From the NCBI GenBank assembly GCA_903839725.1, contig CAIMDG010000001.1, positions 107,559 to 171,558 of the forward strand: 64,000 bases of DNA, read 5' to 3'. Numbering within the stretch: the stretch's first letter is position 1; the number at the start of each line of letters is the position of its first letter. The position numbers and the translations under genes were made by a program. The notes under the pieces are model-generated. The model saw nothing but the letters and a program-made list of their open reading frames with translations. It ran no database searches and was not told where the DNA came from. Of the stretch, positions 6,301 to 48,406 are shown one piece after another. Source of the stretch: an uncultured bacterium (GTDB taxonomy: Bacteria > Patescibacteriota > Minisyncoccia > Phycocordibacterales > PALSA-1337).

Positions 6301-6504
6301 TTGCATACGCAGTAGTGTTCGTATAAATAAAAAACTCACAGAAGACTGTGAGGGGTGTGTCAGGAAGGGAGTCGGTCGGGAGGTTATGAAAGGAGGTGGG
6401 GAACCTCGCTGAAGATTGCACAGCTCCCAACCTGACACAAAAATACTCTAACATATATCTCAATTATTATCAACCCCTCGATGTTTTTCAATCTTAATTC
6501 GCGG

Positions 6505-6628
6505 AGAGACACAGGGGGTGTATGTACTCATTTTCTGCGCAAGTTTAGAGACACATACATTACACCGCGTACCCCAATGTTTACAAACTTGCGCAGAAAA
6601 TGAGTACATACACCCCCTGTGTTCTGTG
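6505..6628. repeat. Palindromic intergenic repeat, family copy A (inverted orientation relative to B/C)
   Basis: Long near-perfect hairpin; core ctcattttctgcgcaagttt...aaacttgcgcagaaaatgag shared with copies at 26407 and 29272. Confidence 0.85.
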
Positions 6629-6674
6629 CTTATAAAAGATGAAAAACATCTTATTTTCTGCTAAAGTGTGACGT

Positions 6675-8978
6675 ATGAACGAGCCATCAAAGATTCCTGC
6701 AAAATTCCTCAAACCATACGACCCAGCTTCAACTGAGGATCGTATCTATTCTTTGTGGGAAAAGAGTGGTTTTTTTAATCCAGATCATTTGCCTGAACGT
6801 AATAAACAAGGCGAACCTTTCTCTATTGTATTGCCACCACCAAATGTGACAGGAACTCTACATATGGGTCACGCTGCAATGTTGGCCATCGAAGATATTA
6901 TGATTCGTTACAAGCGCATGAAGGGATACCGCACACTCTGGGTTCCTGGTACGGATCACGCCGCCATTGCAACTCAATCAAAAGTTGAAAAACAAATTGA
7001 AAAAGCAGAAGGTAAACGTCGTCATGATCTCGGTCGTGAAGAGTTGTTGAAGCGCGTCAATGCTTTTGCTCAGGAAAGTCATGACACTATCGTCAATCAA
7101 GTTCGCAAGATGGGTGCATCGATTGATTGGTCACGTGAAGCATTCACTCTCGATCAACATCGCAATCTTGCAGTGCGTACTGCATTCAAGACTATGTATG
7201 ATCTCGGTCTCATTTATCGTGGTTCAAAAGTTGTCAATTGGGATCCAAAAGGTCAGACCACTATTTCTGATGATGAAATAGTGTATGAGACTAGAAAAGC
7301 AAAACTCTATACATTCAAGTATTCAAAAGATATTCCAATTTCCATTTCAACAACACGTCCCGAGACCAAGCTCGGTGATGCTGCTATTGCAGTTCATCCT
7401 GACGGTCCTCGCTATCAGTCATATATTGGAAAAGAGTTTGATGCAGTATTCGCCGGCGAAGCCATTCACGTCAAAGTTATCGCTGATACTGCGGTTGAAA
7501 AAGAATTCGGAACTGGTGCGCTTGGCGTAACACCTGCACATAGTAGTATCGACTGGGATATGGCACAACGTCATAATCTTCCAATGAAACAAGTTATCGA
7601 TGAATTTGCTCGTATGACTGTTGGTAATGAAGCAATCAAAGGCAAGAAAGTTACCGAAGCTCGCGCGGCAGTCGTTGAATGGCTTAAGGCTGAAGGTCTT
7701 CTCGAAAAAGAAGAAGATATTGACCAGAATGTCGCTACCGCTGAACGTACAGGTGGTATTATCGAGCCATTACCTAAGTTGCAATGGTTCGTTGGTGTGA
7801 ACACGCCGTTCGTATTGGCCCATTCTACTATTCCTGGAATTGCGTCAGGATCAAAAACAACATTGAAGGAAATCATGCTCCAGTCAGTCAAGAGTCGTGC
7901 CATCACTATCATTCCTGATCGTTTTGAACGCGTGTATTTCAATTGGATTGAGAATTTGCGTGACTGGTGTATTTCACGACAGATTTGGTACGGACATCGT
8001 ATACCAGTGTGGTACAAAGAAATCTCAAATCTCAAATCTGAAATCTCAAAATCGGGAACAGCGACAGCGGGAGAGAGTGAGGTGTATGTTGGTATAGAGG
8101 CTCCAATTGGTGAAGGATGGTCTCAAGATGAAGATACACTCGACACATGGTTCTCATCTGGCTTGTGGACATTCTCGACATTGGGCTGGCCCCGCTCTGC
8201 CGAGGCTTCACAGGGCAAGCCTGATGATTTCAGTCTCTTCCATCCAACGAGTGTACTCGAAACAGGATACGATATTATTTTCTTCTGGGTTGCGCGCATG
8301 ATTCTTATGACAGGATGTTTGATCGGAGAAGTTCCATTCAAGACAGTGTATCTACACGGTCTCGTTCGTGATGGTAAGGGAAGAAAGATGTCCAAGTCAC
8401 TCGACAATATTATCGACCCTCTCGATATGATTGCAAAATACGGAGCTGATGCGACACGCTTGTCACTCATTATTGGTACAGGACCAGGTAATGATATGAA
8501 ATTGTCAGAAGATAAGGTGAAGGGGTATAAGAATTTTTCAAATAAGATTTGGAATATTACTCGTTTTATATTGTCCGCTGCAGCAGGTGAACGTTTTGGT
8601 TCTACAGATGTTCCCGCTATTACGTATGACCCTGCATTCAAAGCGTGGTCTTCTGTTGAACTTGCTCATATCAAAGTCTTGAATGATCTCATCGCTGAAG
8701 TTTCAAAAGAAATGGATGAATTCAAGTTTTATCTTGTAGGAGAAAAGTTGTACCACTATATATGGCATGAATTGGCAGATAAGATTCTTGAAGAGAGTAA
8801 ATCTATATTAAGTGGGGACGATCTCCAGGCTCGTACTTCTCGCATTCAGTTTTTATTGCATAGTCTGAACACTTCGCTTCGACTCATTCATCCATTCATG
8901 CCGTACGTTACTGAGGAAATATGGCAAGAAATGGAGAATACACACCTATTGATCGTTGAAGAGTGGCCACGAGCATAG
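6675..8978 (+). CDS. valS: Valine--tRNA ligase (short form, 767 aa)
   Basis: PPPNVTGTLHMGHA class I HIGH region, KMSKS (GKGRKMSKSLDN), WCISRQ motif; length shorter than typical ValRS. Confidence 0.85.
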   Translation: MNEPSKIPAKFLKPYDPASTEDRIYSLWEKSGFFNPDHLPERNKQGEPFSIVLPPPNVTGTLHMGHAAMLAIEDIMIRYKRMKGYRTLWVPGTDHAAIATQSKVEKQIEKAEGKRRHDLGREELLKRVNAFAQESHDTIVNQVRKMGASIDWSREAFTLDQHRNLAVRTAFKTMYDLGLIYRGSKVVNWDPKGQTTISDDEIVYETRKAKLYTFKYSKDIPISISTTRPETKLGDAAIAVHPDGPRYQSYIGKEFDAVFAGEAIHVKVIADTAVEKEFGTGALGVTPAHSSIDWDMAQRHNLPMKQVIDEFARMTVGNEAIKGKKVTEARAAVVEWLKAEGLLEKEEDIDQNVATAERTGGIIEPLPKLQWFVGVNTPFVLAHSTIPGIASGSKTTLKEIMLQSVKSRAITIIPDRFERVYFNWIENLRDWCISRQIWYGHRIPVWYKEISNLKSEISKSGTATAGESEVYVGIEAPIGEGWSQDEDTLDTWFSSGLWTFSTLGWPRSAEASQGKPDDFSLFHPTSVLETGYDIIFFWVARMILMTGCLIGEVPFKTVYLHGLVRDGKGRKMSKSLDNIIDPLDMIAKYGADATRLSLIIGTGPGNDMKLSEDKVKGYKNFSNKIWNITRFILSAAAGERFGSTDVPAITYDPAFKAWSSVELAHIKVLNDLIAEVSKEMDEFKFYLVGEKLYHYIWHELADKILEESKSILSGDDLQARTSRIQFLLHSLNTSLRLIHPFMPYVTEEIWQEMENTHLLIVEEWPRA

Positions 8979-14841: not shown

Positions 14842-15717
14842 ATGAAAGGAGTTTTCATCGACAATGATCATACGGTTGGATATGAAACCAACTCAATTTT
14901 TCGTAAAATATTTAATCTTATTTTTATACCTGTATTGTATATTTTTCCATCTAGAGCGGTACATATTTTAAAAAAAATTCATGTATCAACAGAAGAGATG
15001 GTTGCTCATGCTGGAACACATAGGGCAATGGAAGTAATTTACGATGTCAACCCTCGGCCCAAAGCAAATTATTTTCAAAATTTGTTTCTGTCAGTATGGC
15101 TGGGAATGAATAACTCAAAGGCTGTGAGGAATAGGCTTAGAATGGTTAAAAAGGAAATCAAAAGGAAAATACATAAACTTTCTGAACTGAATAAAGAAAT
15201 AAAAATTATTAATATTGCTTCTGGATCAGCCCGTGCTGTATTTGAATCTATTCATGAGGTTCCTTTGAAAAATGATACAAAACTATCTGCTGTTTTTGTT
15301 GATAAAAATTATGAGGCAATTGCCTTCAGTCAACAGCTAGCCAGTACTCATAGGTTTCTCCCATCTTTTAGATGGGTAAATGATTATGCTCATAATTATT
15401 TAAATAACAATGAGAATAAGTCAAAGTTCAATATCGCAGAAGTTGTCGGTTTGCTGGAATACTTAAGTGATAAAGATGCAATAAATATTTTCTTATTAAT
15501 TTATGAGTGTTTAGATTCTGATGGTATTCTCATTACAACAAATATTGTTAGTAATTTTGAAAGTACATTTATATCAAATTCTGTTGGATGGAAAATGAAC
15601 CATCGCAATGTTGATGAGTTGTCTTCGCTTCTAATCGAGGCAGGGTTTAAATTGGACAAGATGAATATTTATTATGAGCCTCAACGAATACACTGCGTAA
15701 TAGTGGCTCAAAAATGA
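14842..15717 (+). CDS. Hypothetical protein, possible class I SAM-dependent methyltransferase
   Basis: IINIASGSARAV resembles MTase motif I, VFVDKNYEA resembles motif II; weak. Confidence 0.35.
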   Translation: MKGVFIDNDHTVGYETNSIFRKIFNLIFIPVLYIFPSRAVHILKKIHVSTEEMVAHAGTHRAMEVIYDVNPRPKANYFQNLFLSVWLGMNNSKAVRNRLRMVKKEIKRKIHKLSELNKEIKIINIASGSARAVFESIHEVPLKNDTKLSAVFVDKNYEAIAFSQQLASTHRFLPSFRWVNDYAHNYLNNNENKSKFNIAEVVGLLEYLSDKDAINIFLLIYECLDSDGILITTNIVSNFESTFISNSVGWKMNHRNVDELSSLLIEAGFKLDKMNIYYEPQRIHCVIVAQK

Positions 15718-17342
15718 ACCCAGTTAATCTATTTGCCATATCAGCCTTAGTTAATGGAATCGTCTCTATTACATTTGGACTGCTTGTTATTTCTAAAAAT
15801 TGGAGAGACAGAATGAACCAGATATTCTTCTTAATGACTGTTTTTTTAGCTATTTGGTCTTTTTCATACTGGCAGTGGCAATTGGCAACTAGTTATGATA
15901 CAGCATTACTGTGGGTTAAATTGTTATCGATTGGATCACTGTTTATTCCAATATTTTTTTACAATTGGGTTATAAAATTAATTAATGAAGAAAGTCTTCT
16001 TAATAGAGTTGTCTTATGGTCTTGTTACATAACATCTTTTTGTATTCTTTTTTTTGTTAATTCTAATTTGTATATTTCCGGATTAGAAAATAAATCTTTT
16101 TTTCAGTTTTGGCCTAGTTCAGGTGTGGTCTATGATATATATTTTTGTTATATATATTTTGGCCTAATTTTGTATACAGTTTATATATTGTTTCGTACTT
16201 ATTTTATAACCAAAGATAGAGATAAAAAAGGACAGTTATTGTATATAATTATTAGTTGCGTTCTTGGCTTTGGTGGAGTTATAACAGATTTTCCTCTTTG
16301 GTGGGATATTAACATACCACCATATGGTAATTTTTTAGCCGCTGTTTTTCCTCTATTACTAGGTTATTCAATTTTAAAGTACAAGTTATTTAATGTCCGA
16401 GCTATTGTTTCTGAAATTCTTGTATTTTTTATTTCAATCGTTTTGTTAATTGAAGCAATTTTATCAGTTTCCGTCCTGGAAGCAGTAGTAAAATTTTCGG
16501 TATTTATTATTGTTTCAATTTTTGGGTATATACTTATTCGCTCTGTATACAGAGAAATCTCCCAGCGCGAAAAAATCGAAAAACTCGCCACTGACCTCCA
16601 GAAAGCCAATGACCGCCTTCTCGAACTTGATCGTCAGAAGTCAGAATTCGTCTCATTCGCTACACACCAACTTCGCGCACCTCTAACTGCCATGAAAGGG
16701 TATGCCTCTCTCATTTTGGAAGGGGATTTGGGGGCTATTAGTGACCAGCTCCGTCAGGCAATTTCTCGAATATTTGAATCATCGAAGACATTGGCAAATA
16801 TAGTTGATGACTATTTGAACCTTACTCGTATTGAGTTGGGAACAATGAAATATGCATTTGATACAGTTGATCTGAAGACGGTTGTTGAAGATGTTATCGG
16901 AGAGCTTGGGCCAAATATCAAGAAAGATGGGCTTGAATTCACATTCAAGGCTGAGGATATGGGTGATCAATGGGATTGGCGTGTTACGGCGGACCGAGAC
17001 AAGCTTAAGCAAGTTATTGCAAACTTGGTCGACAATTCGATCAAATATACGTTACAAGGCTGGGTTCACGTGACATTGTCTTTTGACCGACCTAAGCATA
17101 AGTTTCTTTTTAGAGTAGAAGATAATGGTATAGGTATAGCCTCAGAGACACTACCATTGCTATTCAACAAATTTAGTCGTGCGGGAAATGCCAATAAGAC
17201 AAATATCAAGGGTACAGGACTTGGTTTGTTCGTGGCAAAACAAATTATTGACTCGCATCATGGTGCCATATACGCAACGTCACCAGGTGAAGGTAAAGGA
17301 TCGACATTTACCGTTGAATTAGAACCATTCGCTAAAGCATAA
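15714..17342 (+). CDS. 7TM sensor histidine kinase (HisKA + HATPase_c)
   Basis: 7 TM helices, H-box SFATHQLRAPLTAMKGY, N-box/G-boxes (NLVDNSIKYT, EDNGIGI, GTGLGLFVAKQI); start overlaps previous gene by 4 nt. Confidence 0.85.
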   Translation: MNPVNLFAISALVNGIVSITFGLLVISKNWRDRMNQIFFLMTVFLAIWSFSYWQWQLATSYDTALLWVKLLSIGSLFIPIFFYNWVIKLINEESLLNRVVLWSCYITSFCILFFVNSNLYISGLENKSFFQFWPSSGVVYDIYFCYIYFGLILYTVYILFRTYFITKDRDKKGQLLYIIISCVLGFGGVITDFPLWWDINIPPYGNFLAAVFPLLLGYSILKYKLFNVRAIVSEILVFFISIVLLIEAILSVSVLEAVVKFSVFIIVSIFGYILIRSVYREISQREKIEKLATDLQKANDRLLELDRQKSEFVSFATHQLRAPLTAMKGYASLILEGDLGAISDQLRQAISRIFESSKTLANIVDDYLNLTRIELGTMKYAFDTVDLKTVVEDVIGELGPNIKKDGLEFTFKAEDMGDQWDWRVTADRDKLKQVIANLVDNSIKYTLQGWVHVTLSFDRPKHKFLFRVEDNGIGIASETLPLLFNKFSRAGNANKTNIKGTGLGLFVAKQIIDSHHGAIYATSPGEGKGSTFTVELEPFAKA

Positions 17343-17346
17343 TTAT

Positions 17347-18888
17347 ATGAATTTATTTGCTGCATCATGTCTTGTTCTTTCTCTCAGTAGTATCCTATTT
17401 AGTTTTATTCTCTACAGAAGTGATCCGTTGAATAAAGTAAATAAATATTGGTTCATTTCAAGTCTCGTCTTTTCTCTATGGTCATTCGGTCTATTTGAGA
17501 TTGCACTTACATCCGATGATTCCATGGCCTTCTTCTGGCAGAACATGATCAATGTATCAGCCGTATTCATTCCCTTGGTATATGTATTTTTTCTCTTTGA
17601 ATTCCTCGGACTCAAGCAACGAAAGATGCGTATCGGGTTGTTTGTCTTGGCAGCAGCATTCTCTGAATTTAGTCTGACTCCATTGTTCCAACAAGGCATA
17701 ACAATGACAAAAGGTTTCTTCTGGATCAATCCAGGACCATACTATTTGCTGTTTCCAGTCTATTTCATGGTCTATGCAATCATATCAGTATCTCTCCTCG
17801 TTGTTTCCTATGGAAATTCAGAAAAGGGTAGTCCTATGAGAAAGCAGATACGTAATATGATCATCGGAAGTTTGATTGGCTATTTGGGTGGAGTTACAAA
17901 CTTTTTTCCTGAAATATTCGGAGACTATCCATACGGTAACTATTTGATCATTTTTTACATTATATTCATGATCTATGGCGTTATACGCTATAGAAGTTTG
18001 AATGTAAAAACTATTTCAACACAACTATTTTCAGGAGCTTTGATATCAGTGGTATTCTTCAATTTTATGCGTTCAGTTAATCTGGAAGATTGGATAGTTA
18101 ATTCAATTGTCCTCATTCTCGTTATTACATTTAGTATGATCTTGGTTATTGCAAATGATCACTTGAACGAAACTAACCGAGAAAAGTCAGAGTTCGTATC
18201 ATTTGCTACGCACCAACTTCGCGCACCACTAACTGCTATGAAAGGGTACGGTTCGCTTATTCTCGAGGGAGACATGGGTGAAGTAAACCCAGAAGTTCGC
18301 CAGGCAGTTTCTCGTATGTTCGAATCAACCAAGACCCTCGCCAGTATTGTTGATGACTATCTTGATGTAACTCGTATCGAATTGGGAACCATGAAATACA
18401 TATTTGACCGTGTTGATCTCAAATTGTTGATTGAAGATGTTATCGCTGAACTCAAACCAAATCTCAAACGTGAAGGTGTTGCTTTTGACTTTAAGATTGA
18501 AGAAATGGGTCAGCAGTGGGATTGGTCAGTAAAAGCGGATCGCAACAAATTGAAGCAAGTTATTGCAAATCTATTGGACAATTCAGTGAAGTATACCTTG
18601 CAAGGTTTTGTGCACGTCTCATTGTCTTTTGATAGAAAGAAACATAAGTTTGTATTTAAAATCGAAGATACTGGAGTAGGTATTGCACCAGAGGTTCTTC
18701 CAACACTCTTCAATAAATTCATCCGCGCCGGTAATGCGAATACTGCCAATGTTAAAGGTACTGGTTTGGGTCTTTATGTTGCAAAACAAATTGTTGAAGG
18801 TCATCGTGGAGCAATTCGTGCTTCATCTGCCGGAGAAGGAAAAGGCTCAATATTTGTAGTTGAGCTCAATCCATTCGAGATTCTCTAA
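17347..18888 (+). CDS. 7TM sensor histidine kinase, tandem paralogue
   Basis: Same architecture; kinase domain about 70% identical to the upstream HK at protein level, nucleotide similarity obvious by eye. Confidence 0.85.
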   Translation: MNLFAASCLVLSLSSILFSFILYRSDPLNKVNKYWFISSLVFSLWSFGLFEIALTSDDSMAFFWQNMINVSAVFIPLVYVFFLFEFLGLKQRKMRIGLFVLAAAFSEFSLTPLFQQGITMTKGFFWINPGPYYLLFPVYFMVYAIISVSLLVVSYGNSEKGSPMRKQIRNMIIGSLIGYLGGVTNFFPEIFGDYPYGNYLIIFYIIFMIYGVIRYRSLNVKTISTQLFSGALISVVFFNFMRSVNLEDWIVNSIVLILVITFSMILVIANDHLNETNREKSEFVSFATHQLRAPLTAMKGYGSLILEGDMGEVNPEVRQAVSRMFESTKTLASIVDDYLDVTRIELGTMKYIFDRVDLKLLIEDVIAELKPNLKREGVAFDFKIEEMGQQWDWSVKADRNKLKQVIANLLDNSVKYTLQGFVHVSLSFDRKKHKFVFKIEDTGVGIAPEVLPTLFNKFIRAGNANTANVKGTGLGLYVAKQIVEGHRGAIRASSAGEGKGSIFVVELNPFEIL

Positions 18889-28289: not shown

Positions 28290-29213
28290 TTAGAGCCAGC
28301 GTTTTTTCTTGAATACCCACCAAATTGCTGTTGCCATAAAGAACATGATGATAAGGATCAGAGTCCATCCATAAGGAAAATTGATCAAAGGGACGCGAAG
28401 TGCGGGGATTGTGAATAAGGCCGCAAGGAATGTAACCGGCTGAAATATGAACGTAGCCAAGGTCAAAACACGCATAGTCTCGTTTTGCTTTGAATTGAGA
28501 AGGGAATCGTTCGTTTCGCGAAGGTCGTCGATCAATTCACGAGCATTCGCTGAAAGTTCATAGATCTGCTCGAAATCTACTTTGATATCACGAACATATG
28601 AAACATATTCCTTGCCAAATAAGTCTTTTTCAACACTGGTTACCATGTCATCCCAGATATCACGATGTATGCGTGCTGTTTGTCTGAAGTCGATAAGTTC
28701 ACGGTTGAGATTTGAGAGGACTTCAACCATCTCACGTTCATCTCCTTTGAATATATGATTTTCTGAAGCAGTAAGGGCACCATTGATATTTTCTAGATCA
28801 TTGATCATGCCAGAATAGATACGCTTGATCATGTAGTAGAAAAGGTGGCCAGCGTGTTCGATCTTTTGGCCCTTGTCGAGAATAGCATTGGCGTCGAATA
28901 TTTTTGCAAAGTAATCAATCTGTTCGATAGTTTCTGCACGAGCAGTAATAAGGAAATTTTTACCAATAACGAAGTCAACTTCACGATCAACAATAGTGTA
29001 GATACCATCAACACGCACACGTACAGGTACAGTGAGAACGATCATAATGTACTCTTCGTAGAAGTCTATTTTTGCGCGAGAAGGAGAATCTTTGAGTTCT
29101 TCTCCAATCAATGGGTTGAGTCCATATCTTTTGATAACACCAGATATTTCCTCATTGTTGGGCGATTGTAAATCTAACCATACGAGATTGCGATGTGTGT
29201 GGGTAGTGATCAT
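28290..29213 (-). CDS. CorA-like divalent cation transporter family protein (non-canonical motif)
   Basis: Cytoplasmic alpha/beta domain plus two C-terminal TM helices; position of GMN motif reads LIN (PLINFPYGW). Confidence 0.65.
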   Translation of the reverse strand: MITTHTHRNLVWLDLQSPNNEEISGVIKRYGLNPLIGEELKDSPSRAKIDFYEEYIMIVLTVPVRVRVDGIYTIVDREVDFVIGKNFLITARAETIEQIDYFAKIFDANAILDKGQKIEHAGHLFYYMIKRIYSGMINDLENINGALTASENHIFKGDEREMVEVLSNLNRELIDFRQTARIHRDIWDDMVTSVEKDLFGKEYVSYVRDIKVDFEQIYELSANARELIDDLRETNDSLLNSKQNETMRVLTLATFIFQPVTFLAALFTIPALRVPLINFPYGWTLILIIMFFMATAIWWVFKKKRWL

Positions 29214-29271: not shown

Positions 29272-29397
29272 AACCCTGCACACAGGGGTAGTATTCTCAT
29301 TTTCTGCGCAAGTTTGTAAACATTGGGGTACGCGGTGTAATGTAAGCGTCTCTAAACTTGCGCAGAAAATGAGAATACTACCCCTGTGTGCAGGGTT
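29272..29397. repeat. Palindromic intergenic repeat, family copy C
   Basis: aaccctgcacacaggggtagtattctcattttctgcgcaagttt...aaacttgcgcagaaaatgagaatactacccctgtgtgcagggtt followed by TTTTT. Confidence 0.85.
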
Positions 29398-29438
29398 TTT
29401 GCTTTTATGCGATAATATCAATACATAATTTTTTACAC

Positions 29439-30647
29439 ATGAATACAAACAATAAGAATTTCTTGTATGCGTCAATTGGTATACCCGCAGTTATCATTGG
29501 TTTTTTTGTTGGTGTGTATGTAAATGAAAAACATGGCGTTTCTTCGATGACGGCAGAACTCAATAACACATCACTTGCTACGAGTGAACAATTTTCTACA
29601 TTTTGGGAGGCATGGAAAACTCTTGATAACAAATCTGTCTTTGCGGCTAGTACCACTCCGCAGGATAAAGTATACGGCGCGATAAAGGGACTCGCATCAT
29701 CATACGGAGACCCATACACCGTATTTTTCCCACCGGTAGAAGCTAAGATGTTCCAGGAAGATATTGCGGGGAATTTTGGTGGAGTTGGTATGGAAATTGG
29801 TATCAAGGAACATCAGTTGGTAGTAGTTACTCCAATAAAGAATAGTCCCGCATTCAAGGCGGGAGTCAAGACAGGAGATCTTATCATTAAGATTAATGGT
29901 AAAGAAACAACCGACTTGGCAGTTGATCAAGCTGTTAAACTTATCCGTGGTGAACCCGGTACCGTTGTTAAAATAATATTCTTGCCCAAGGATGCCGCCA
30001 AGACTGTTGAGCGTAGTATCACTCGTGCCATTATTGACATTCCAACACTTGAAACTGATACAAAACCAGGAGGTGTATTTGTAATTCGCTTGTTTACATT
30101 TACTGCAAATTCAGCAAGCCTATTCAGAACAGCACTTCGTCAATTTATAATGTCTGGTAATAATAAACTCGTTCTTGACCTTCGCGGTAATCCAGGAGGA
30201 TATCTTGATGCTGCATGGGACATGGCCTCATGGTTCCTTCCTACCGGAAAGACTGTGGTTACTGAAGATTTTGGTAAGAATCAATCTCCAAATGTATTTC
30301 GAAGTAAAGGATATGATGTATTTGCAGGCAAGAATTTGCACATGATGATTCTTGCTGATGGTGGCTCTGCTTCTGCTTCTGAAATTCTTGCAGGCGCTCT
30401 TCAAGAGCAGGGTATAGCCAAGCTTGTTGGAACCAAAACCTTCGGTAAGGGTTCAGTCCAAGAATTGATCTCAATTACTCCTGATACCTCACTCAAAGTC
30501 ACTATTGCTCGATGGTTGACTCCTCAGGGCCACAATCTGTCACATGATGGCCTAGAACCTGATTATAAGGTAGAGATGACCGACAAAGATATTGAAGCAA
30601 AAAAAGATCCTCAGATGGATAAGGCCGTCCAATTGTTAAATCAATAG
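29439..30647 (+). CDS. ctpA: Carboxyl-terminal processing protease (S41 family)
   Basis: N-terminal TM, PDZ domain, S41 motifs DLRGNPGGYLDAA and GSASASEILAGAL...TFGKGSVQ; ORF opens at 29388 inside repeat, start trimmed to MNTNNK. Confidence 0.85.
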   Translation: MNTNNKNFLYASIGIPAVIIGFFVGVYVNEKHGVSSMTAELNNTSLATSEQFSTFWEAWKTLDNKSVFAASTTPQDKVYGAIKGLASSYGDPYTVFFPPVEAKMFQEDIAGNFGGVGMEIGIKEHQLVVVTPIKNSPAFKAGVKTGDLIIKINGKETTDLAVDQAVKLIRGEPGTVVKIIFLPKDAAKTVERSITRAIIDIPTLETDTKPGGVFVIRLFTFTANSASLFRTALRQFIMSGNNKLVLDLRGNPGGYLDAAWDMASWFLPTGKTVVTEDFGKNQSPNVFRSKGYDVFAGKNLHMMILADGGSASASEILAGALQEQGIAKLVGTKTFGKGSVQELISITPDTSLKVTIARWLTPQGHNLSHDGLEPDYKVEMTDKDIEAKKDPQMDKAVQLLNQ

Positions 30648-32077: not shown

Positions 32078-32268
32078 GGAAATAGACCTAAAATGGCTCG
32101 TATCTCTTCAAGAAGTCCTGAAATACATACAATTAGCAGGACGCGGATATTTTTCTGCTGAAAAATTCCTAGTGCTCGCCTCAGTCAGGCTCGCAGTGTC
32201 CTGCTAATTGTATGTATTTCAGGACTTCTCCTCAACTGACGATTATTAGCCATTTTAGGGCTATTTCC
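32078..32268. repeat. Nested long inverted repeats (outer 20-bp arms enclosing inner 31-bp arms)
   Basis: Outer ggaaatagacctaaaatggc (32078-32097) vs gccattttagggctatttcc (32249-32268); inner gaagtcctgaaatacatacaattagcaggac (32112-32142) vs gtcctgctaattgtatgtatttcaggacttc (32198-32228). Confidence 0.85.
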
Positions 32269-34195: not shown

Positions 34196-34322
34196 AACTA
34201 CCAATATATATGAGCTTTGCCGAAACATCAGTGACGTGCAAATATACATGCCTAAAGAACAAAATAATTAAACGAAATCCCGCTGGGAATTGTTTCGGCA
34301 AAGCTCATATGTATTGGTAGTT
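34196..34322. repeat. Long inverted repeat (32-bp arms, 1 mismatch, 63-nt loop) downstream of M23 peptidase gene
   Basis: aactaccaatatatatgagctttgccgaaaca vs tgtttcggcaaagctcatatgtattggtagtt. Confidence 0.85.
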
Positions 34323-48279: not shown

Positions 48280-48406
48280 TACTCACCTAGGATATGACAT
48301 TGAGTTTAGATTTCGCGTAAAAATTCATCAAAATTTTATTCTATTTTCATCGAATCTTCATTTCGTTTTGATACGATTTGTTGTACGAAAGATACATTCT
48401 TTCGTC

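Follow-up and report, generated by a model that had tools for sequence, protein, structure and literature searches.

The 64-kb stretch of DNA analysed here (hereafter the window) comes from a bacterium that protein homologues place in the Paceibacterota/Parcubacteria (CPR), near 'Candidatus Taylorbacteria'. Its genes are housekeeping genes only (aminoacyl-tRNA synthetases, dnaB, recR, ribosomal proteins, dnaK/dnaJ/grpE, secY, and cell-wall genes), and no transposase or recombinase gene is found in it. Three copies of a palindromic element lie between these genes, each built of two long inverted arms around a 38-nt loop. Copy A lies between csp and valS and ends 47–53 nt upstream of the valS start codon (ATG at 6675), copy B is flanked by dnaB (24909–26285, minus strand) and a 98-aa ORF (26614–26910, plus strand), and copy C is flanked by corA (28290–29213, minus strand) and ctpA (ATG at 29439). 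These are the neighbours given in the original prediction.

Copy A (6509–6622, minus orientation) forms a 38-bp perfect stem from its left arm (6509–6546) and right arm (6585–6622), with a loop (6547–6584) that reads GTAAAC...GTCTCT on the minus strand. Copy B (26408–26527, plus orientation) has a perfect stem of 37 bp (26412–26448 paired with 26487–26523) around its loop (26449–26486), and pairing runs on beyond this stem to 26408/26527 with one mismatch. Copy C (29272–29397, plus orientation) has 44-bp arms (29272–29315 and 29354–29397) and a loop at 29316–29353. All three copies are thus where they had been predicted, with perfect stems, and the 20-mer CTCATTTTCTGYRCAAGTTT occurs six times in the window as three inverted pairs, against a chance expectation of 0.06. 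The first 29 nt of the loop occur exactly three times. Folding energies of copies A–C are −77 to −91 kcal/mol on either strand (z −12 to −20). Further predicted details hold as well: the outer arms differ among copies yet are self-complementary in each, and copy B carries GTAC for GCGC on both arms. The centre, said to be non-palindromic, has no significant self-complementarity when the loop is tested as a palindrome, and in copy A it is indeed the reverse complement of that in copies B and C. With palindromic arms, such an inverted centre is equivalent to the whole element lying in the opposite orientation.

Start codons are 32–122 nt from all copies, and copies B and C, as well as a fourth copy (D) found in a sister species and described below, lie between divergently transcribed genes. 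The genes valS, ctpA, rmuC, and yqeY each have an extended −10-like motif, TGnTAnnnT, 7–30 nt before the ATG; the motifs are conserved in relatives, and their sequence suggests extended −10 promoters. The putative valS promoter (TGCTAAAGT, 6659–6667, plus strand) follows copy A and is retained by the sister species; that of ctpA (TGCGATAAT, 29408–29416, plus strand) is 11 nt past copy C and conserved in three species. The same motif, also conserved across species, is present at 19394–19402. Since the predicted promoters are downstream of the elements, the elements would sit just upstream of promoters and outside the mRNAs, and copy A would, as far as the sequence can tell, be outside the valS transcript. 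Such short distances from −10-like motif to start codon suggest leaderless or very short-leader mRNAs.

Other features of the window deserve mention here. A 54-nt direct repeat (78% identical) occurs twice, at 48324–48377 and at 26562–26615, the latter just downstream of copy B and upstream of the 98-aa ORF, where three species retain it. A conserved structured stretch, GTGTCAGGAAGG...CCAACCTGACAC, at 6335–6455 (L130 9678–9760 in the sister species) separates the csp terminator from copy A and has a promoter-like site (6491–6463) and a terminator-like site (6352–6335) on the minus strand. This stretch may be a small RNA; it has no match in Rfam, even in E-value mode. Two tandem paralogous HisKA_7TM histidine kinase genes at 15714–18888 share DNA blocks that are 71–76% identical (repeats D1/D3).

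For comparison, we used assemblies of a sister species (the GROS21-1 assemblies, hereafter G2; loci L125, L130, and L150), whose CysS and ValS proteins are 86% and 93% identical to those of the window. Fourfold-degenerate sites differ by 42–56% between the two, i.e., they are close to saturation. Full elements nonetheless occupy the orthologous positions at valS (site A, L130 9831–9951) and dnaB (site B, L125 11736–11854) in G2, giving copies A' and B'. G2 has an extra full copy, D, between yqeY and rmuC (L125 19409–19527), where the window has an empty 39-nt spacer (19372–19410). At site C, all that G2 keeps is a stretch of about 30 nt matching copy C's right arm; the left arm and the loop are gone. 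In a more distant relative (L129, 74% identical), site B is empty and site C holds a simple 21-bp hairpin, an arm of which aligns with the outermost part (about 12 bp) of the copy C stem; an older hairpin therefore encloses copy C. Copy A, too, probably lies within a pre-existing inverted repeat: 11 bp at 6480–6490 (GATGTTTTTCA) pair with 6640–6650 (TGAAAAACATC) around it, and both halves are conserved in G2. An older inverted repeat thus surrounds the copy at two of the four sites, A and C. Sites B, C, and D show presence/absence polymorphism between related genomes, and in relatives of 74–81% identity the family is absent from the same promoters.

Six full copies are therefore known in two species (A, B, and C in the window; A', B', and D in G2), about 100–125 bp in size with loops of 38–39 nt and arms of 30–44 bp that can pair as a hairpin or a cruciform. 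Their density is three per 64 kb in the window, and three plus one remnant per roughly 65 kb in G2. A covariance model made from the six copies, a check proposed in the original prediction, found no further members in about 280 kb (the window, G2, and four further relatives). That prediction was also exposed to the chance that the family had no further copies or was a decayed member of a known insertion sequence (IS) family; what we found was additional copies in G2, covariation upheld across all six, and neither target-site duplications nor known IS ends. The flanks of all six copies lack direct repeats, and where the flanks of copies resemble each other, the resemblance is an inverted one. 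The insertions lack sharp boundaries. Assemblies of the same population from other samples have identical copies, and several of their short contigs start or end inside copy B.

In an alignment of the six copies from the two species, covering 38 stem pairs (225 cells), 99.1% of cells are paired. Both-sided changes occur in 20 of the 38 pairs (45 cells) and one-sided changes in none, and the only departures from Watson–Crick pairing (one G.U and two mismatches) are confined to the outer end of copy D, which is decaying. None of 500 shuffles scored as high, and slid registers came nowhere close. Indels, too, have their mirror image in the opposite arm. The orthologous copies A/A' and B/B' differ at 4–7 positions per arm, and all of their stems are perfect. 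A 40-bp stem hardly feels one mismatch, and RNA stems normally pass through wobble intermediates; copying of one arm from the other therefore explains this exact, wobble-free symmetry better than selection for pairing does. The original prediction left the choice between covariation and arm-to-arm conversion open, and the conversion half of it is the better fit: 45 double-sided changes, no one-sided change, and a single G.U are not what selected covariation would be expected to leave. Template switching is well established as a process that does this, homogenising the arms of inverted repeats and maintaining perfect hairpins, as well as inverting spacers and extending palindromes (PMC8604942, PMC8794818). 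Compensatory changes have also been reported in REPIN hairpins (PMC3116915).

Seventeen of the 38 stem pairs are invariant and fall in the blocks GG, TCATTTTC, AA, and TTT (the last two as AA.TTT). With neutral sites about 50% diverged, this invariance points to sequence constraint or to continuing exchange among copies, and it could equally well reflect a host function. A variable hexamer within the arm is a 6-bp palindrome in four of the six copies (window 6538–6543 and 26440–26445; in G2, the arm of B' on L125): TGCGCA in A and C, TGTACA in B, and CTGCAG, one base leftward, in the site-B copy of G2. These small palindromes could be chance, or a trace of local template switching or of restriction-site-like selection.

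The loops behave differently from the stems. Within one genome they are 85–92% identical with an unambiguous orientation (the arms are 69–94% identical), while between genomes only the loop ends, G.AAAC and GTCTCT, are clearly shared and the centre is near neutral divergence. Loops of one genome thus resemble each other more closely than the variable blocks of the stem do, although they change quickly from one genome to the next—a pattern that counts against simple copy-and-paste followed by decay, because that model does not predict it. The pattern might come from copy-to-copy conversion that uses the invariant blocks, or from copies being replaced at favoured sites. Orientation is informative too: the loops of sites A and B are opposite to each other in the window and co-oriented in G2, and the flanks are collinear, so at least one loop has been flipped or replaced at an orthologous site. 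This conclusion is robust, as it uses only relative orientations within each genome. More tentatively, the two parts of the loop disagree when species are compared: the ends match one way round, while the centre gives a weakly better alignment (P about 0.03) when reverse-complemented. The GKAAAC...GTCTCT strand, but not its complement, could form a 5-bp helix that includes G.U pairs where the loop meets the stem. The complementarity of the loop to the rest of the window or to the sister loci is limited to chance-level 10-mers.

Searches for known relatives of the family found none. Rfam gives no match at gathering thresholds, which sets aside the curated RNA families, and its E-value mode gives only generic miRNA-precursor hairpins well below threshold. 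A 17-base arm pattern had at least 116 single chance matches in contigs of species genomes, with a paired arm in none of the matches listed, and the paired-arm pattern in JGI metagenomes found two unrelated hairpins and no family member. Two scans of viral contigs gave nothing or chance matches without a second arm, blastn of copy C against plasmids and phages gave no match, and no parent IS with the same ends was matched in plasmids, phages, viral contigs, or JGI metagenomes. The outer arms do not occur elsewhere in the window as 'empty' CAGGGG...CCCCTG hairpins. The original prediction had named RAYT or IS200-like transposase genes as something to look for: no RAYT (IS200-like Y1 transposase) gene is present in the 64-kb window or in about 65 kb of the sister genome, and neither these nor the flanking sequence analysed contain a transposase or other candidate partner gene. 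The prediction that the element is REP/MITE-like with no known family is upheld by its dispersal, by its presence/absence and decay between sister species, and by the lack of a match in Rfam, phages, plasmids, or metagenomes.

Several established classes were compared with the element. REPINs are doublets of REP sequences that form hairpins and are mobilised by RAYT transposases (Bertels & Rainey 2011, PMC3116915). The likeness is considerable: both are intergenic, non-coding, and about 100 nt long, with two inverted arms around a short spacer forming a long hairpin; in both, compensatory changes are common, target-site duplications are lacking, and solo remnants occur. However, our arms have no REP-like sub-palindrome and do not self-fold—taken one at a time, they are no more stable than shuffled sequence (z −1.7 to +0.1), so we rejected them as REP units—and the element also differs in its perfect 37–44 bp stems, its low density (three per 64 kb), the lack of a visible RAYT, and a loop that is conserved within the genome, whereas in a REPIN conservation is lowest in the spacer. 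In a REP-RAYT system each unit is a short imperfect palindrome able to fold by itself, the repeats flank the RAYT gene, and a genome holds tens to hundreds of copies. MITEs (Correia/NEMIS, RUP, ERIC, and similar) share with the element small size, non-autonomy, terminal inverted repeats, proximity to promoters, and variable presence, but here the collections searched held no related IS, the arms account for some two-thirds of the element and never carry uncompensated mismatches, and the flanks form inverted, not direct, repeats. A DDE-type MITE was rejected because the target-site duplication that defines it is absent at all six copies. The element is thus a demonstrated member of neither the MITE nor the REPIN class.

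Other comparisons concern mechanism or target choice. Homogenisation of quasipalindromes by template switching (Ripley 1982; PMC8604942; PMC8794818) accounts for the perfect arms, the mirrored multi-nucleotide and indel changes, spacer inversion, and outward growth of the palindrome, but it is a mutational mechanism and not an element family, and it leaves the same 100 nt at four loci and the likeness of loops within a genome unexplained. TIGR arrays (TIGR-Tas, PMC12045711), in which tandem repeat units adjoin a Tas (Nop-domain) gene, were set apart on layout, as the copies are single, dispersed among housekeeping genes, and form no tandem array. A parallel can also be drawn with mobile elements that target palindromes. 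IS1397 and ISKpn1 insert in REP loops and class C group II introns insert after terminators, which resembles copy C, and probably A, at the centre of a pre-existing inverted repeat; those elements are autonomous and protein-coding, however, and only a non-coding hairpin is present here. Integron attC sites, T-box leaders, retron msd, invertons, and DNA-uptake sequences were also weighed and rejected, as there is no cassette, reverse transcriptase, or recombinase nearby and the copies are single and at low density.

The studied family is not the only source of long hairpins in these genomes. The window has three unrelated long perfect hairpins, all absent from G2. The one at 2695–2788, between RND-adaptor and ABC ATPase genes, has two inverted 30-nt units around a 34-nt spacer, and its units fold alone (ATACCGGCGAAGGTCGGTAT; arm z −2.7), making it REPIN-doublet-like. 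Another at 54590–54691, between secY and infA, has 26-bp arms and a GC-rich 50-nt loop; the corresponding spacer in G2 is 73 nt with no hairpin, and the right edge of the insertion is at ...AGTT|GTC in both genomes. The last, at 34196–34322 and directly 3' of an M23 peptidase gene, has 32-bp arms. Different hairpins are found at the same positions in L129 and in an 81% relative (L131): L129 has one with 40-bp perfect arms and a 37-nt loop at the M23 peptidase site (2818–2934), and L131 has two in its csp–valS spacer, the site of copy A (121–411), the first with perfect arms of 34 bp that enclose another hairpin, the second with 37-bp arms and a 37-nt loop (301–411). The latter was considered as a family member on account of its same architecture and rejected, as the covariance model misses it. 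Hairpin gain and loss seem to be general in this clade.

One further hairpin makes a useful control for the studied family. About 100 nt upstream of rpmA (L27), a 32–33-bp perfect hairpin with a loop of about 55 nt is found in both species (32111–32229 in the window; L125 6096–6214). Many of its stem positions differ between species and the stem is perfect in both, but here, in contrast to the studied family, strong conservation extends to the loop. The hairpin has the look of something functional and is a candidate cis-regulatory element or leader.

Our preferred explanation, which we hold with slightly better than even confidence, is a lineage-specific family of non-coding palindromic repeats that works like a MITE or REPIN and whose arms are kept matched by template switching. 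Four unlinked loci share about 100 nt, including the non-palindromic loop, and this, together with the gain at D, the truncation at C in G2, and the absence from the outgroup, is what a dispersed repeat that is mobile, or recently was so, would show. Gain, loss, and truncation of copies would take place between genes, directly ahead of promoters, with spread presumably depending on a trans-acting factor that is encoded outside the window and reads the invariant stem blocks and loop ends. Once a copy has settled, template switching between its arms during replication would either copy each new mutation across or erase it, keeping the stem perfect without selection, and the same process could invert the loop. 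The repeat family itself, its Watson–Crick stems with purely double-sided changes, the occupancy of orthologous sites with gain and decay between species, the missing target-site duplications, and the likeness of loops within a genome were observed directly; from these patterns we infer mobility by way of a trans-acting factor, the homogenising role of template switching, and the lack of an RNA function. Against the preferred explanation count the lack of a transposase or other partner gene in the window and the flanking sequence analysed, the missing target-site duplications and sharp boundaries, the low density of copies, the behaviour of the loops, and the 17 invariant stem pairs, which a host function would explain equally well.

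The main rival, which we consider unlikely, is that the copies are cis-regulatory palindromic operators, possibly extruding as cruciforms, bound by a lineage-specific dimeric host protein that controls the adjacent divergent promoters, with the invariant arm blocks and loop ends as its predicted binding sites. The position of all copies directly upstream of putative promoters and close to start codons, the invariance of 17 stem pairs and the loop ends between such diverged species, and the occupancy of sites A and B in both species are what an operator would show. However, the neighbouring genes (valS, dnaB, corA/ctpA, and rmuC/yqeY) have no evident functional link; the same promoters do without the element at site D in the window and in the 74–81% relatives, and with half of it at site C in G2; the orientation and centre of the loop are unconserved between species; and a 40-bp perfect stem far exceeds the needs of an operator. 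Rather unlikely, too, is a separate reading, that of an element type not described before in CPR bacteria: units in single-stranded hairpin form would home into the apex of existing promoter-adjacent hairpins, with the exposed 38-nt loop read by, or rewritten from, a genome-specific trans factor. Such a mechanism would account for the likeness among loops of one genome, their near-neutral divergence between genomes, and their flipping in place, alongside 17 invariant stem pairs. On this reading the elements might also act as promoter-proximal cruciform switches.

A structured non-coding RNA (an sRNA or 5' leader), its hairpin kept by selection on RNA pairing, is improbable. The very stable folds, the strong covariation, and the possible strand-specific helix at the base of the loop fit such an RNA, but RNA stems would not be expected to show so little wobble (one G.U) and no one-sided change, copies A and B keep no fixed orientation to each other across the two species (both points speak against structured RNAs in general), the copies are upstream of their neighbours' putative promoters, the loop centre is near neutral, Rfam yields only sub-threshold generic hairpins, and the copies have no promoter or terminator in common. 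The original prediction's 'REP/MITE-like or structured RNA' is thereby narrowed: its first part stands, while its second is disfavoured by the missing wobble, the unconserved orientation, and the location upstream of predicted transcripts. We rate as equally improbable that the copies are non-mobile hairpins which grew in place by template switching and resemble each other through gene conversion between loci or convergence. The nesting of A and C in older inverted repeats, the unrelated species-specific hairpins in the same genomes, and loops that behave as if homogenised within a genome favour local growth, whereas the roughly 100 nt of homologous sequence at four unlinked loci, non-palindromic loop included, does not. 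As that shared sequence entails at least one copying event between loci, local growth differs from our preferred explanation mainly in mechanism. The chance that the copies are bidirectional intrinsic transcription terminators is very small: a T-run follows copy C, which was flagged as terminator-like, but A and B have no T-run, B, C, and D are between divergent genes with nothing to terminate, and the stems are far longer and the 38-nt loops far larger than those of terminators.

CPR/Patescibacteria genomes are tiny and usually called repeat-poor, and their sets of DNA-repair genes are reduced. Our literature search found no description of a comparable repeat family in this group. The elements have practical consequences, as they break metagenome assemblies and could serve as strain markers. 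They are also a clean natural case of 40-bp hairpins that diverge at many positions without ever carrying a mismatch, and hence a caution that 'compensatory changes' are not proof of a functional RNA. For organisms with reduced repair, they provide material to study template-switch homogenisation, loop flipping, and hairpin-targeted insertion.
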